A DNA stretch of 38,443 nt from contig CAMTVO010000016.1 of the NCBI GenBank assembly GCA_947085205.1, positions 1 to 38,443 on the forward strand, in the 5' to 3' direction. Source of the DNA: an uncultured Nitrospiraceae bacterium (GTDB lineage: Bacteria > Nitrospirota > Thermodesulfovibrionia > Thermodesulfovibrionales > Dissulfurispiraceae). Made by a program: the position numbers. Below, in pieces: positions 3,001-12,000 of this stretch. Position 1 is the stretch's first letter. The number at the start of each line of letters is the position of its first letter.

Positions 3001-6000
3001 AAAAATACCGTAGAGCTTCTTGCCCGGACAGAAAAGATGGTTTCAATTGGACGACTTGCATCAGGCGTTGCCCATGAAGTAAACAATCCATTAAGCGGCA
3101 TAACCCTCTGCTTTAAAAATCTCATGGAAGGCAATAAGGATAATCTAATGAGAGAAAAGCTGATACTTGCAATCAATGACGGACTTCAGAAGATTAAAAA
3201 TATCGTTGAGCAGCTTCTTGATTTCTCAAGGATGACCGTTACAGAAAAGACACCCGTTAATATCAATAACCTTATAAACAAGCTGCTCGTTCTGATTAAT
3301 TATCCTGCCTCAAAAAAGAACATAAAGATTGTTAGTGAGCTTTTTGAAGACATTCCAGAAATATCCATTGATGAAAACAAGATGTCGCAAGTGTTCATGA
3401 ATATAATGATAAATGCCATTCAGGCAATGGATGGAGGCGGCGCGCTTACAATCAGGACAGTAGTGGAAAATGGATTTTATGTGGTTTCCATCGAGGATAC
3501 AGGGGTCGGCATTTCGCCTGATATAATGCCCAGCATATTTGACCCTTTCTTTACGACAAAGGGAGTTGGAGAGGGGACAGGCCTGGGGCTCTCTGTGAGC
3601 AAGGGAATAGTGGAACAGCATGGCGGTATAATTGAGATTGAAAGTGAGGTTGGCAGGGGAACGACCTTCAGGGTTAAGATGCCATTTACGTTATGAAGAT
3701 ACTCGTAATAGAAGACGAACTTTCTGTAAGACTCGGGATTGCCTGTACCCTGGAAGGTGCTGGATATAAGGTTAAGACTGCTGAAAACGGGATTGACGGC
3801 ATCAGCCTTTTTGAGAAAGAGAATTTTGATATTGTTATCACAGACCTGAAACTCCCCGGCGCTGACGGCATAGAGGTTTTAAAGGCAGTAAAAAATATCT
3901 CTCCTGATACAGGCGTAATCATTATCACTGCCTTTGCAGAAATTAAAACCGCTGTTGAGGCAATGAGGCAAGGCGCTTATGATTATCTCTCAAAACCTTT
4001 TGATCCCGCTGAGTTGCTTATCGTCATAGAGAGGTTCACAAAGCAGAGGGGACTTGAGCTTGAGAATATACGATTAAAAGAAAAGATAAGGGACAAAAAA
4101 CAGTTTGAGCAGCTTATCGGCGCAAGCCCTTCAATGCAGGCAATATTTCAAATGATTGAGGCAGTTGCAAAAACAGATTCATCAGTGATTATTTATGGAG
4201 AAAGCGGGACAGGAAAGGAGTTGGTTGCAAACGCCATCCATAATCTTTCACCGAGAAAAGAAAAAACCTTTATCAAGATAAACTGTGCCGCTATACCAGA
4301 GACCCTCCTTGAGACAGAATTATTCGGACATGAAAAGGGGGCATTTACAGGCGCTGTTCAGAGAAGAAAGGGCAAGTTTGAGATTGCAGACGGAGGAACA
4401 ATATTTTTTGATGAAGTAGGAGATATGGCCCTGCCGCTTCAGGCAAAGCTTTTGAGGGTTCTCGAAAATCATACATTTGAAAGGGTGGGCGGGAATGAAG
4501 CAATCACTGCAAATGTGAGAACCATTTATGCAACAAGAAAGAATCTGAAAGAGGAAGTAAAAGCAGATAGATTCAGGGAAGACCTTTACTACAGGATCAA
4601 TGTCTTACCTGTTACAATTCCACCTTTGAGAGATAGAAAAGAAGACATCCCCCTGCTTATTGAGCATTTCTTAAAATTTTTTAGCAATAAGACGGGAAAG
4701 AAGGATATGGCTATTACGCCTCTGGCAATAGAGAGGCTAATGAATTATGATTACCCTGGCAATGTAAGGGAGATTGAACATGCCATAGAAACGGCTGTAA
4801 TCCTGTGCAGAGGCAATGAGATAGACACCTGCTGCCTCCCTGCTGAGATAAGGGGCAATGAGATAAAAGAGGAGATAATGTCCATCCCTTGCGGCAGCCT
4901 TACCCTTGAAGAACGGTTAAAGGTATTCGAAAGGGACGCTGTTATGCAGACTCTGACTGCCACTGGCGGCAAAAAGAAAGAGGCTGCAGAAAAGTTAGGC
5001 ATCAGCAGGGAGACACTCTGGAGAAAGCTAAAGGAATATGGTTTTCCTGTAACCTCTGAATCAGAGGATTAATCTCCCAATATCTTATTCTGTTAGCTTT
5101 TTGCAACTCCACTAAAGCTTTCAGGTTGCACATCTGCAACTTAAAGCACACCTGAATTAGAAGTGTCCATTGATTTTTAAAGATTTTTCAGCTTGGCACT
5201 GCTTTTGCTTTATGTTTGATAAGTTATTTCTGTAGGCAAAGGGGGTGATCAAGGTTTTGAGTCAAGGGTTTTTGTTTAAAGGTAGTTTTTTTAAAATCTT
5301 CAAAAAGGAGGAGTACGAAGCTTATGGAGAAATTTTTTAATCCAAATATCAGCAGAAGGGCATTTTTGCAGTGGTCAACTGCCATAACGGCAACGCTTAC
5401 GATACCGGGACTTGCATCTGCATCTCCAAAGAGCATTGCTACTGCACTGGAGGAAAGATGGGTGCCTTCAATATGCACCCAATGTAACGGAAGATGTGCA
5501 TTGGCTGTGAGAATTGTCGGCGGCATAGCAGTAAAAATTGAGGGATTGAATGGTCAGAGGCCAGGAATAGCAGGCAATGTTTTGCCGCGTGATCCAATAA
5601 CCAACGGCAAGCTATGCGCAAAGGGCGCCGCAGGGCTTGAGCAGCTTTACAATCCTGACAGGATTAAATATCCGATGGTAAGGGTAGGAGAAAGAGGCTC
5701 CGGCAAATGGAAACGCATAAGCTGGACAGAGGCATATAACAAGATAATTGCAGGGGATAATAATGAAGGGATTGGATGGAAGGGGCTGAGAGATCATCAC
5801 GGCAAGTGGAATACACTTGCAGGCATGTACACAAAGAATGGAGATGCAGACGGAGCTAACCCATCCGATGACCTCAAAAGGTTTCCTGAAACCATGATAA
5901 ACGCCTGGGGCAGACATCAGGCTGACTGGTATCAGGATAGATGGCTTAACTCTTATGGTCATTACCCTTACAGATATCAAAGGTGAGGACTCTGTTACAG

Positions 6001-9000: not shown

Positions 9001-12000
9001 TGGACAAAGGAAAATTGAAGATCTTTCAGCAGAGAGAGGCAATACCTGCTATCATGGTCTTCCTGAATGGGAACCTCTTGATGTATCACTTGCCCGACCA
9101 GAAGATGACCTTAGTCTCATTACATTTAAGGCGTCAGTTTATACAAAGACAAGATTGGCTTCCCAGCCGTCCCTTAAAGAGATTATGTGGGAGAATGAGA
9201 TTGTGATTAACCCTGATGATGCGAATAAACGAGGCATAAAGACAGGCGACAAGGTAGTCGTTGAGGCAAGGCAGAGGACGCCAGGCACAACAGAATATCG
9301 CATTGAAAAGGTTGAAGGCCCTGCCAGGGTGACAAAAGGCATCAGACCCGGTGTGGTTGGTATTTGCGGCATGTTCGGACATAAATACGCAGGTAAATTC
9401 AGTGTTGATGGTAAAGCTAACAGACTGGATTCAAAGGCTGCTGCTTGGCCTGTTCAGAAACTTCCTGATGATCTTGACCCCGGCTATAAAGGTGAATATG
9501 TATGGAGCAGATACGACGGACATCAGAACACAGGCATCAACACAAACAAGGTAATCTGGAGCCTTACCGAGCCCATAGGCGGCGGGGCACAGTATCATGG
9601 AACAAAAATTCGTGTCTATAAAAAGGCATAAAGGAGGTGGTAAACAATGACACAATATGTATATGCATATGATTCAAATAGATGTGTTCGCTGCCACGCC
9701 TGCGAGACAGCCTGTAAGATGGAAAATCAGGTTCATGTGGGGCATGGAGCAGGAGCCGCCGAGGGAGGTTATGGCTGGGGCGGACCTGGAGAAAAAGGAC
9801 CAAGATACCGCAGGGTGCGAACATTCGGAGATGGGCCCGGGACATATTTTCTTTCTATGTCCTGCAACCACTGCAGCGACCCTGTGTGCTGGAAGACATG
9901 TCCGCTCAAGGGCAAAGACCTTTTTGATCCAAAGGGTGCGATTTACAAGGAAAAAACAGTTGGCGCTGTCATAATCCAGAACGGAAAATCTGGCACGCCG
10001 AAAATCTGCGATCCTGAAAAAGCAAAGTGCGACAGAATATGTCAGAAGGCATGTCCATATGAGGCTCCTCAGTGGAACCCTGTCACAAAGGTGATGGAGA
10101 AATGCCACCTCTGTGTCCTCACAAGACTCAAAAGACCTGACCCTGATGGAGTTAAAAGACCAGCGTGTGTTGATATCTGCATGGGCAGGGCGCTTCAGAT
10201 AACAGATGAGAGGACAAAACCATACAAACTCGTCAGAAGCAATAAGGGAAGATACAAAGGAAAGACAGCAGATACTGAGGATGGAGGCGCAACAGCCTTT
10301 GTTGAAACAAAGGAAGGGATACCGCCTGATGAGCAGCATCCAGGTGACTTCACTACCGATTTAACAAAGGTCGGCGTTGCACCGCCGGACATCACAAAAC
10401 CGAATACTATCGTGAGACCGAAGGCGATGTGGTAAAAACGAGTAGATTTAACAAGGGGGACGAAGTCCCCCTTGTTCCCCAAAGGAGGAGACCTTGAAGA
10501 CAGATTTTAAGACAGACTGGGAACTTGGAGCAAGGGTTTTTGGTTATAGTTTTCTTTTTAGAGGCTTTTTGGAAGAGCCGACAAAGGATTTTCTTGAGAA
10601 ATTAAAAAATGAGGCTTTTCTGTCTTACTTCCCTTACATAAATGAGAACGATGATATTAAAAATGGTGTTAGATTTGTGGAGTCATACATTAATGAGAGC
10701 TCCTCAATTGAAAAACTTACTGATGAATTAGCAGGCGACTATGCAGGGCTTTTTTTAGGCCCTGGCAAGGTGATAGCTCCTCCGTGGGAATCAGTATATG
10801 TTTCCGGAGGCGGACTCATTTTCCGTGAAGAGACCTTTGAGGTGAGGAAAAGATATGCAAAGCACGGGCTTTTACCTGAAAAGTTAAATAAGGAGCCTGA
10901 TGACCATGTAGGGCTTGAACTGCAATTTATGTATCTGCTTTCTTCAAAAACCATCGATGCCATAGATTCAGGAGACTACAAAAAGGCAAGGGAACTGTTT
11001 CATGATCAGAAAGAATTTCTGGAAGAACATCTGCTTAAATGGTCGCCAAGATTTTCAGACGATATATATCACAATGCAGAGACATCGTTCTATCGTGGAA
11101 TAGCAAGGATACTCAAGGGCTTTGTGACTGAAGATCATGGAAAATTAAATGAATTAAGCGGAATTTTTAATTTTGATACCGTAGACGTTTCATGAAATTG
11201 AAGAACTTGAAAGAAACAATGAAATAAATGGAGGTTTTGATGAAAAGGGCGATGATTGTTTTTCTTGTTTTATCGCTGATTTCTCCGTCTTCAGTATTTG
11301 CAATGGAGAAAGACGAGATTCTCAAAAAACTTGAAAATGTTCTTAAAAAGAACGAGGAGCTTTTCAAGGAAGTGGAGCAATTAAAAAGGCAGATGCAGGA
11401 TATAAAGTCAAAAGAGGATACTCAGGACAAAAAAATCTCTGCACAGGAAAAGAAAGTAAAGGATGTGGAAAAGCTTGCGAAAAAGGCAGAAGGCATCTCA
11501 AGGTTTGAGGTTTGGGGAGAATACAGGTTTAAAGCAGACTCTATCCATGCTAATTTTGACCGATTTACCGGATTCAGATGGAATCCGAATGTAACAATGG
11601 GCGGCGCAGCGATAGGCGCTTTCCAGCCTAAACAGTATGAGGAATTCACTGCAAGTGACAATAGCCTCCTGACAAACCGTTTAAGGCTTAAGTTTAAAGT
11701 AAAGGCAACAGATGATGTTGACTTTACAGGACGGCTTGCTATGTATAAGATATGGGGACATCAGACAGCAGCGCCGCTTGAGGGTAACTACGGCGGAAAC
11801 TATGGCTTTATGCCGCAGAATTCAATGCTTTTTGACGGCAACACATCGTATAAGCCTTCAGACAGCGCATTAAAGGTTGACAGGGCATTTGTAAACTGGT
11901 ATGAGCCTGGAGGATTCCCCGGTATAATATCAGTTGGAAGAAGACCTTCCGCAGGCGGTCCGCCTTTACATCTCAAGCAGGGTATTGAGCGGGATGCCAC

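Follow-up and report, generated by a model that had tools for sequence, protein, structure and literature searches.

The 38,443-nucleotide stretch of DNA analysed here (the window) contains a single 1435-codon frame whose sole internal stop, a TGA at codon 221, most likely encodes selenocysteine (Sec). The TGA is embedded in Y-R-Y-Q-R-[TGA]-G-L-C-Y-S-G, so that Sec would most likely stand three residues before a retained metal-binding cysteine, a position which is not listed for the DMSO reductase family. In published accounts, selenium occurs in this family solely where Sec ligates the metal of formate or formylmethanofuran dehydrogenases, and the clade of PsrA, ArrA and TtrA is described as Cys-only (PMC10100899, PMC7331816, PMC13188914). 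An earlier note on this DNA had described one TAT-exported frame of 1435 aa, interrupted at codon 221 by a single TGA, and had read it as the Sec-containing catalytic subunit of a very rare clade of this family. The frame was confirmed, and a real, conserved and very rare catalytic subunit, most likely recoded with Sec, is supported; the enzyme is missing from the selenoprotein lists consulted. The features of the locus are collected in Table 1.

Table 1. Positions of the catalytic subunit gene, its parts and its neighbours within the window
Feature	Position	Strand	Remarks
Regulatory trio: PhnD-like periplasmic binding protein, histidine kinase, sigma-54 response regulator	1299..5072	+	
Sigma-54 -24/-12 promoter-like site	5194..5209	+	1 match; 19/100 shuffles also give one
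Catalytic subunit gene	5324..9631	+	1435 codons including the TGA; fold of the DMSO reductase (Mo/W-bisPGD) family
Twin-arginine signal peptide (SRRAFLQ), residues 1 to about 33	5324..5422	+	Cleavage site predicted from sequence
N-terminal 4Fe-4S motif C51, C54, C58, C98	5474..5617	+	PF04879; Cys at all four columns in 34/34 distant rows
In-frame TGA, codon 221, putative Sec	5984..5986	+	Aligned with Thr/Ser of H-T-S-I-C (ArrA Ser190)
Cys224, canonical Mo/W ligand column, helix start	5993..5995	+	Alignments; helix 223-236 in model
SECIS-like hairpin	5994..6027	+	Loop 21 nt past UGA; loop CUUGC without canonical leading G
Inserted short-strand beta domain, copy 1, residues 621-725	7184..7498	+	Unmatched in PDB and BFVD
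Inserted beta domain, copy 2, residues 1067-1171	8522..8836	+	32% identical to copy 1 (tblastn E 4e-10)
Molybdopterin dinucleotide-binding domain IV, residues 1263-1369	9110..9430	+	PF01568; motifs
Iron-sulfur beta subunit, DmsB/TtrB-like, 16 Cys	9647..10435	+	No signal peptide seen
TorD/DmsD-family maturation chaperone	10494..11195	+	
DUF3373 protein, putative outer-membrane porin	11228..12859	+	
Small PKD-domain protein	12875..13282	+	Also in L023, G053
Deleted remnant of TtrA-like gene	17459..18499	+	Intact ttrB-ttrA behind operon in L023, G053

Decoding of the in-frame TGA

The TGA codon itself could be read in the window, in the homologous locus L023 and in X4 and X7, two sequencing runs from other studies; the two most distant clusters, P0002 and P0164, were compared at the protein level. 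All 15 N-terminal pieces fetched, belonging to three clusters that are 73-100% alike, end at the position of residue 221. As X4 differs from the window only once over positions 5837-6036, and outside the TGA, an assembly error can be dismissed, and none of the 35 changes listed for X7 falls within 5978-6054. Between the window and L023 the amino-acid identity is 89% and 88% on the two sides of the TGA, with 39% and 54% of the shared degenerate codons changed. Judged from this comparison, purifying selection acts on both sides of the TGA and the frame is coding on either side. The lone stop in a metagenome-assembled genome and the broken ttrA nearby might have pointed to a pseudogene or an assembly artefact, but this idea is largely refuted by the selection on either side and by the recurrence of the same stop in three clusters and in runs of other studies, and it deserves hardly any weight.

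It also appears quite unlikely that the TGA is a true stop, separating a 220-aa exported Fe-S piece from a 1207-aa piece restarting at a TTG (6008), or that it is a conserved translational control point. Two proteins are indeed annotated in databases, the TTG start is retained in 15 proteins of four clusters, TGA terminates 229 of the 797 long ORFs of the host genome and the hairpin downstream is non-canonical. However, the ligand Cys224 would then be part of neither product, although G-L-C-Y-S-G-F is conserved codon for codon. Moreover, the break would cut through the active-site loop in domain II, and no Shine-Dalgarno-like run was found before 6008 or 6077.

The host genome contains selA, selB, selD and one tRNA-Sec with G73, and its FdhA and SelD genes each carry a TGA and a hairpin. 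As selA was found in 59 of 68 family genomes, this machinery does no more than permit a reading as Sec. The hairpin after the UGA that the earlier note had reported is present, with a stem at 6000-6006/6012-6018, a lower stem at 5994-5998/6023-6027 and the loop CUUGC, but its folding energy does not exceed that of shuffled sequences (z -0.18 and -0.91), and the window sequence also allows a competing register with the loop AAGCC. Canonical bacterial SECIS elements have their loop 16-37 nt from the UGA, an energy of -7.5 or lower and a G in the first two loop positions. Spacing and energy of the hairpin agree with this definition and its synonymous sites are conserved, whereas the loop G is absent in both registers. 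The twelve codons 223-234, which lie over the hairpin, are identical in L023, whose overall identity is 79%; a fraction of 0.00085 of 20000 simulations gave this at that place (p about 0.001). As the canonical element is present in just 87.4% of BSepDB entries, non-canonical SECIS elements do exist.

Decoding of the UGA as Cys (tRNAReC-type) or Trp instead of Sec would need no Cys homolog and would fit the atypical hairpin, yet it is highly improbable. A tRNAReC requires U73, whereas the sole tRNA with a UCA anticodon among the 43 tRNAs found is of the Sec type and ends in G73-CCA, and TGA is an ordinary stop in this genome. Furthermore, if Cys were enough, some homologs should have TGY, but none of the 15 N-terminal pieces reads through. 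The tRNAReC alternative raised in the earlier note is thereby weakened, although a second UCA tRNA could be missing as the genome is 89.7% complete.

Fold and active-site register

Pfam matches on the joined protein cover residues 45-110, 113-141 and 1263-1369, which reproduces the N-terminal span given previously and shifts the C-terminal one (1232-1338) by 31 residues; the twin-arginine signal peptide is backed by PF10518 in the homolog P0002. The roughly 800 residues described as lacking any Pfam match do lack one, but they do not form one unknown block. This middle part consists of the ordinary domains II and III plus inserts, among them the duplicated beta domain, and the large size originates from eight scattered inserts (about 576 residues in total) within an otherwise complete core, with 697 of the 1435 residues in core columns. 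The ligand Cys, the GR, DPR and DxLLP-ExYLE motifs and the R and GH of domain IV are retained; the PGTD motif has lost its Asp. AlphaFold2, which had failed previously, recovered the core fold (model residues 44-1243) when a 43-row alignment was used. The duplicated beta domain has no structural match in PDB and BFVD. The best Foldseek match of the model is ArrA (PDB 6CZ7; E 5.9e-17). Structural comparison gave Z 19.4 for ArrA (547 aligned, rmsd 4.5), Z 18.8 for PsrA (512 aligned, rmsd 3.5) and, as the top row about 1 Z above ArrA, Z 20.6 for ActB (430 aligned, rmsd 3.1).

The position of ActB and the lost Asp of PGTD would be compatible with a cofactor-less electron-transfer scaffold of the ActB, QrcB or Nqo3 type, in which Sec serves another purpose. 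This is very unlikely: a dedicated TorD gene is present at all three loci of the clade (window, L023 and G053), the ligand Cys and most motifs are retained, and phylogenetic analysis puts the clade with TtrA-like and not with QrcB-like rows. Pfam, the four-domain fold and the ligand column support a catalytic subunit of the DMSO reductase (Mo/W-bisPGD, MopB) superfamily, with cofactor and activity being predicted.

In three separate alignments Cys224 falls in the column of the metal ligand, whereas Sec221 is aligned with the Thr/Ser in H-T-S-I-C, and the ArrA motif ISHSSVC and the PsrA motif KPSVSLC fall on the same profile columns. The ligand column holds Cys in 33 of 34 relatives and in 98 of the 133 rows of a wider alignment, 16 of which are gaps. 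Alignment and fold, with a model of low confidence at the loop (block pLDDT 58-71), indicate that Cys224 and not Sec221 occupies the metal-ligand position, contrary to the earlier proposal of Sec as the ligand. The column of Sec221 is that of ArrA Ser190, which contacts the substrate together with His189, Tyr166 and Lys198 (PMC10654088), and the neighbouring Arg220 stands in for a conserved His. Cys homologs exist for nearly all selenoenzymes, which is usual but not universal; for Sec221 none was found in the 34 relatives and one, apparently shifted, in the 133 rows.

As the ArrA equivalent of Sec221 touches the metal-bound substrate, the selenium would lie near the metal. Sec221 might even bind it, either jointly with Cys224 (a two-residue U-x-x-C ligand with Se in the sixth site, normally oxo or sulfido) or in exchange with Cys224 during turnover. 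A U-x-x-C motif ligates the metal in [NiFeSe] hydrogenases, and the adjacent His-to-Arg change and the remodelled loop sequence would fit as well. Such ligation is nevertheless rather unlikely: Cys224 takes both the conserved ligand column and the helix start, the accounts consulted name a single amino-acid ligand for each member of the family, and the FDH/Fwd searches of Wells 2020 revealed no Sec outside the ligand column. It is unlikely, too, that Sec is non-catalytic and that the enzyme is a Ttr-like reductase in other respects, with Sec as a redox switch or as oxygen protection through a selenenyl-sulfide to Cys224. Although thiol oxidoreductases usually have U-x-x-C as their redox motif and Sec resists irreversible oxidation, Cys224 is expected to be metal-bound, position 221 would line the substrate site and the costly recoding is retained in clusters 73% alike.

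Locus, relatives and distribution

The operon A-FeS-TorD-DUF3373-PKD named in the earlier note is present in the window and repeated in L023 and G053. L023 has a matching sigma-54-type site upstream (position 181), and its upstream region also holds the 3′ end of a sigma-54 response regulator. As the DUF3373 gene is common across the host family (48 of 67 other genomes), it is no pointer to the substrate. No gene for a membrane anchor (TtrC) was found at the window, L023 and G053 loci. In G053 the sole selD comes after ttrA. The host genome contains dsrA and aprA as well as separate PsrA-like genes with NrfD anchors.

In three trees the clade is sister to TtrA-like rows (support 100/99; 99 under a mixture model), with rows named by their best NCBIfam match, all below cut-off, and characterised TtrA or SrdA sequences not included. 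This suggests a long-branched sister (1.0-1.5 changes per site) of TtrA/SrdA-like enzymes rather than of PsrA/PhsA. Substrates of the wider TtrA-like clade are sulfur intermediates and oxyanions of As and Se (PMC7331816). As the branch is long, the site has lost its His and Lys/His to other residues and the electron partner is not indicated by any membrane anchor, the substrate may be unrelated to that of TtrA.

TAT export, the 4Fe-4S and GR motifs, the Cys ligand column, the RG motif of domain III and the layout of domain IV are shared with TtrA, and ttrBA adjoins the operon in L023 and G053. However, identity to TtrA is only about 22-28%, the length is 1435 aa versus about 1000, H-T-S-I-C is R-U-G-L-C here with the His of H-x-x-x-C changed to Arg, the TtrA model NF011567 gives 87.5 bits (cut-off 1750), and in place of a TtrC-anchored system there is no anchor and a beta subunit that lacks a signal peptide of its own. 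ArrA (Shewanella ANA-3, PDB 6CZ7) has the same soluble periplasmic AB layout, and the equivalents of its Arg165 and Cys193 are kept; Tyr166 is Tyr in P0002 but His in most copies of the clade, and His189, Ser190 and Lys198 are replaced by Arg, Sec and Leu. The ArrA model NF041714 gives 50.7 bits (cut-off 1600), and the clade lies outside the ArrA-like tree branch. Thermus PsrA (PDB 2VPW) is the best PDB sequence match, with the same fold and Gly-to-Cys spacing of 12, whereas Sec takes the position of its Val170, PsrC is absent from the operon and the PhsA model NF012032 gives 162.5 bits (cut-off 694). FdhA/FdhG/FdhH and FwdB share the superfamily and a Sec from UGA with a downstream hairpin, but in their U-H-x-P motif Sec itself ligates the metal, whereas in R-U-G-L-C it precedes a retained Cys by three residues and lacks the following His; the clade is far from the FdhA of the host in the tree. 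The MOLY cluster (MolyA, MolyB, TorD) of sulfur-disproportionating bacteria is, in the available excerpts of its descriptions, an anchorless, exported A-B-TorD operon as here, with a proposed role in sulfur chemistry; MolyA as described there has an ordinary size, and these excerpts do not mention Sec, which would set it apart from the clade (PMC9676032, PMC13490349).

Candidate mechanism and occurrence

Frame, conservation, machinery, ligand register and fold are shown by the analysis, and the trees suggest a placement beside TtrA-like rows. Beyond these, we favour with modest confidence a Mo/W-bisPGD reductase of the periplasm that carries a selenolate in the second sphere and acts on a sulfane-sulfur or selenium compound, a model in which Sec insertion, metal binding, the role of Sec and the substrate are predictions. 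A sulfate-reducing Thermodesulfovibrionales host would decode UGA221 as Sec by its SelA/B/C/D via the adjacent hairpin, and a TAT-exported, soluble, periplasmic complex of an alpha (one 4Fe-4S cluster) and a four-cluster beta subunit would be served by its own TorD. As in PsrA, ArrA and TtrA, the Cys (here Cys224) would hold the metal, with electrons delivered through the Fe-S chain, and Sec221 would take the place of a hydroxyl residue at the edge of the substrate site. Arg197 and Arg220 could grip an anionic substrate such as polythionate, thiosulfate, polysulfide or a Se oxyanion, while the selenolate may attack or shuttle a chalcogen atom at the Mo/W centre, cycling via a selenosulfide. 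Such a second-sphere Sec beside a Cys ligand would separate the role of selenium at a Mo/W site from ligation, with U221 and C224 being separately changeable. The protein would be a candidate enzyme for periplasmic sulfur chemistry of sulfate-reducing Nitrospirota and a selenoprotein of the kind missed by searches for Sec/Cys pairs and canonical SECIS, which bears on the incompleteness of the bacterial selenoproteome.

Possible but doubtful is a site with two protein chalcogen donors, in which Cys224 keeps its usual place and Sec221 is metal-bound or forms a catalytic selenosulfide, having arisen from Thr/Ser without surviving Cys intermediates and being inserted with a non-canonical SECIS. 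If true, the DMSO reductase family would gain a new type of active site and would have come to use selenium a further time, independently, with the enzyme serving in the periplasm a so far unrecognised step of sulfur/selenium respiration or disproportionation.

The rarity claimed earlier is in agreement with the counts obtained here. Close clusters number five for the C-terminal part, the window's own included, and three for the N-terminal part. Two of 68 family genomes carry the gene (the second copy being cut at a contig end), one of 390 class genomes was matched with the active-site query, and two of 401 sampled phylum genomes were positive. The clade is very rare and apparently uncultured.

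Reading frame, neighbourhood and rarity of the gene

As the earlier note had proposed, the alpha-subunit gene could be translated as a single frame of 1435 residues whose only internal stop is a TGA at codon 221, in the context Y-R-Y-Q-R-[TGA]-G-L-C-Y-S-G-F. The N-terminus exhibits a twin-arginine signal followed by a four-cysteine Fe-S motif, the C-terminal end contains a molybdopterin-binding domain, and Pfam matches cover residues 45-110, 113-141 and 1263-1369. Genes for an iron-sulfur subunit, a TorD chaperone, a DUF3373 protein and a PKD protein follow in 3′ direction. On the 5′ side lie a sigma-54-type site and genes for a PhnD-like binding protein at 1299-2198, a kinase and a sigma-54 regulator. 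The sigma-54-type site is weak on its own (19 of 100 shuffles also yield one match); a matching site is present in L023, a locus with a closely related copy of the gene and its operon. Scans for sigma-70 promoters and terminators gave results no better than chance, and an Rfam search of the window yielded one tRNA and no SECIS family. The arsenite sensor AioX has a cysteine; as the mature part of the PhnD-like protein contains none, an AioX-type function is unlikely. DUF3373 was rejected as a substrate clue, since it is present in 48 of the 67 other host-family genomes. Within the short flanks of 31 further DUF3373 loci no match to the A, B, TorD or PKD proteins of the operon was found, and the DUF3373 copy of another genome (G020) has different neighbour genes. 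Two DUF3373 matches, one in the second host-family genome G053 (locus L043) and one in genome G001, include one TGA each.

Coordinates of the features discussed (window positions unless a genome or contig is named)
Feature	Location	Strand	Remarks
Alpha-subunit gene	5324-9631	+	
TGA of codon 221	5984-5986		
Sigma-54-type site	5194-5209		
Codons 33-47	5420-5464	+	directly after signal peptide
Insert 381-460	6464-6703	+	
Repeated domain, residues 621-725 and 1067-1171	7184-7498, 8522-8836	+	
Second molybdoenzyme operon	13435-17463	+	TAT-exported subunit of 808 aa bearing a Cys ligand motif; FeS subunit; 150-aa protein containing a single CxxCH; TorD
TtrA-like remnant	17459-18499	+	truncated at both ends, internal deletion; intact in L023 and G053
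MMPL/RND gene cluster	27737-33506	-	
G053 selD	L024 (G053 locus) 8310-9350 (G053:C5:30417-31343)	-	own in-frame TGA and hairpin
DUF3373 match, L043	G053:C10:14408-15658	-	
DUF3373 match, G001	G001:C5:625791-627101	-	
Candidate Sec codons, host genome	C2:30493, C59:15079, C62:11001	+	with hairpins
Candidate Sec codon, host genome	C46:2962	-	with hairpin

A search with the N-terminal part returned three clusters, which are all that passed the filter; the 15 proteins in them, among which is that of the window itself, all terminate at R-Y-Q-R. This conserved end reaches down to 73-74% identity and is known in the database proteins P0002 and P0164 from the protein ends alone. The C-terminal search yielded five close clusters (one the window's own), the next single match being 29% identical over 11%. 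HMMER, run against 1.84 billion representatives, gave three matches under 1e-30, every one a piece of the clade formed by this giant subunit and its close homologs; a full-length read-through form was absent from the protein-database search results. The TGA codon itself was observed in the window, in L023 and in the sequencing runs X4 (from another study) and X7. Run X4 exhibits one difference from the window over 5837-6036, run X7 has 35 listed changes with zero within 5978-6054, and in run X11 none of the 17 changes listed (of 27) falls on the TGA; run X6 stops short of the site. According to their records, the compared runs are metagenomes from aquatic, groundwater and rock sources. No RNA data set was among the 12 runs listed, which speaks neither for nor against expression. 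Window and L023 share 89% identity before and 88% after the TGA, with 39% and 54% of the shared degenerate codons changed. Judged by this sequence comparison with L023, both sides of the TGA are under selection.

The gene occurs in 2 of 68 host-family genomes (the second copy is cut by a contig end), in 1 of 390 class genomes (active-site query) and in 2 of 401 sampled phylum genomes, which bears out the rarity that had been claimed for it. The host and G053 belong to the same family, and the G053 fragment of the alpha protein is labelled Thermodesulfovibrionales at NCBI. With the middle of the protein as query, 47 pattern matches and zero relatives were obtained from genome contigs.

Decoding of the UGA and the metal ligand

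The host genome encodes selA, selB, selD (with its own TGA) and one Sec-type UCA tRNA ending in G73, and its FdhA has a TGA at the ligand position. As 229 of 797 long ORFs end with TGA, this codon is otherwise a stop in the host. Since selA is found in 59 of 68 host-family genomes, the Sec machinery permits, and does not prove, a reading as Sec. Downstream of the UGA lies a hairpin with its loop at a distance of 21 nt. Codons 223-234, which cover this hairpin, are identical in the window and L023; an identical run of that length at the hairpin arose in a fraction of 0.00085 of 20000 simulations, and a 12-codon run anywhere in 8%. From the start-codon use it appears that the TTG codon in the loop is kept, because 15 C-terminal pieces in four clusters start at Leu229. 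The loop CUUGC contains no G at either of its first two positions, where the bacterial SECIS consensus calls for one (PMC13188914). Pair probabilities for CUUGC versus a competing AAGCC register are 0.31 and 0.69 in the window and 0.98 and 0.01 in L023, and the folding of both sequences is no better than that of shuffled ones. Canonical SECIS elements are given for 87.4% of BSepDB entries. Codons 33-47 are likewise identical in the window and L023, and this run of 15 exceeds that at the hairpin; recombination or an RNA element may account for it.

The earlier note had left open whether U221 or C224 ligates the metal. In a 43-row alignment including 34 distant relatives, the Cys224 column holds Cys in 33 of the 34, the codon-221 column Thr in 25 and Cys in none, and the Arg220 column His in 32. 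A profile built from the 34 distant rows only, and thus excluding the clade, aligns the window identically. A search of 147 proteins added 133 further aligned domains, in which column 224 contains 98 Cys and 16 gaps, and column 221 contains 45 Thr, 11 Gly, 10 Ser and 1 Cys in an apparently shifted row. HHalign places Y-R-Y-Q-R-U-G-L-C without gaps against Y-R-W-D-H-T-S-I-C of one relative. The ArrA motif I-S-H-S-S-V-C and the PsrA motif K-P-S-V-S-L-C both fit the same profile columns as the window, so that codon 221 corresponds to ArrA Ser190. PMC10654088 names this residue among those that contact the substrate, along with His189, Tyr166 and Lys198. In an AlphaFold2 model of residues 44-1243 a helix begins at 223 (blocks 58 and 71), which matches, at modest local confidence, the expectation for a ligand Cys. 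Based on the alignments and this helix, Cys224 is the predicted ligand and Sec221 a predicted second-sphere residue; Sec is thus predicted beside the ligand Cys and does not replace it. If the TGA were instead a true stop between two separate products, Cys224 would belong to neither of them, which makes a split gene unlikely. Insertion of Sec at UGA221 is, in our estimation, highly likely, and the alpha gene is real and conserved and very probably encodes a hidden selenoprotein.

Family placement and fold

The clade stands beside TtrA-like rows in a FastTree tree of 55 rows (support 100), in an IQ-TREE analysis of 26 of these rows (100/99) and under a mixture model with 17 rows (99); its branch measures 1.0-1.5 changes per site. 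Tree rows were named by their best NCBIfam match, all below cut-off (56 proteins scanned), and the trees were built without characterised TtrA or SrdA. Judged from these trees, the clade is probably a new, rare branch adjoining TtrA/SrdA, with the TtrA-like rows labelled below cut-off. A literature search yielded no description of it. Table 1 of the 2026 prokaryotic selenoprotein catalogue, in its available part, has FdhA and FwdB as Mo/W-bisPGD entries; throughout its main text 'molybdopterin' and 'tetrathionate' appear once each (for MoeB and an octaheme cytochrome, respectively) and 'DMSO' never. In the sections consulted, Wells 2020 and 2023 assign Cys to PsrA, ArrA, TtrA and SrdA; Sec is assigned to FDH and Fwd only.

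The AlphaFold2 model has a mean pLDDT of 52.7, with 320 of 1200 residues at >=70. Its best Foldseek match is ArrA (E 5.9e-17), and structural Z values are 20.6 for ActB (430 aligned), 19.4 for ArrA (547) and 18.8 for PsrA (512). Columns common to at least 70% of 52 relatives include 697 of the 1435 residues, and eight inserts of at least 25 residues total about 576 residues, the largest being 558-738, 1066-1182 and 381-460. The cofactor motifs are retained, except for the Asp of PGTD. Two of the inserted stretches are copies of one 105-residue domain (32% identical), and for copy 1 the model shows short beta strands with high confidence (blocks 74-94). Insert 565-775 matched only its own clade in the protein database. 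A model of residues 560-780 gave no PDB or BFVD match at E 0.001, which does not establish a new fold, and a best Z of 2.5 among 48161 chains. By eye, insert 381-460 looks similar to beta-rich inserts that the database proteins P0012 and P0017 carry at the equivalent position; phmmer revealed no link between them.

Proposed mechanism and substrate

In the proposed model, the enzyme would be a TAT-exported alpha-beta complex that lacks a membrane anchor. TorD would mature it, a sigma-54 system sensing a small oxyanion would induce it, and it would work alongside a putative DUF3373 porin (PMC4827864 lists DUF3373 alongside a putative porin family). Mo or W would be held by Cys224 and an anion bound by Arg197 and Arg220, and the Sec221 selenolate would attack or carry a chalcogen atom at the metal. 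Because of the clade (PMC7331816) and the gene neighbourhood, a sulfane-sulfur or selenium compound is a reasonably likely substrate; this is the weakest step of the model. Intact ttrB-ttrA genes lie 3′ of the operon in L023 and G053, and the window keeps a deleted remnant that matches the G053 TtrA-like protein with 80% identity to residues 348-562 and 92% to 667-810. The place of PKD-ttrB-ttrA in these two loci is occupied in the window by a second molybdoenzyme operon, whose 808-aa subunit is placed by the tree outside the Psr/Arr/Ttr group and matches no family above cut-off. The only selD of G053, 39% identical to the host selD, is located directly behind ttrA, as seen in this one genome; the small membrane protein encoded after it resembles TauE/SafE when its sequence is read by eye. 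Two studies (PMC9676032, PMC13490349) consider anchor-less A-B-TorD clusters and Ttr homologues as sulfur-disproportionation candidates. The host genome carries dsrA and aprA. It also encodes separate PsrA-like enzymes with NrfD anchors, and the giant enzyme therefore probably has another role.

A heuristic genome scan for UGA genes kept 20 of 3867 candidates and missed the codon-221 site, so that its list is a rough one. Four further candidate Sec codons in the host genome have motifs that, read by eye, resemble DsbC/G (G-U-P-F-C), a peroxiredoxin (T-F-V-U), a radical SAM protein (G-P-T-U) and a U-x-x-C protein. A gene cluster elsewhere in the window encodes a LolA-like protein, a metallophosphoesterase, a Pfam-free secreted protein of 455 aa and an MMPL/RND protein that carries a cyclic-nucleotide-binding tail.
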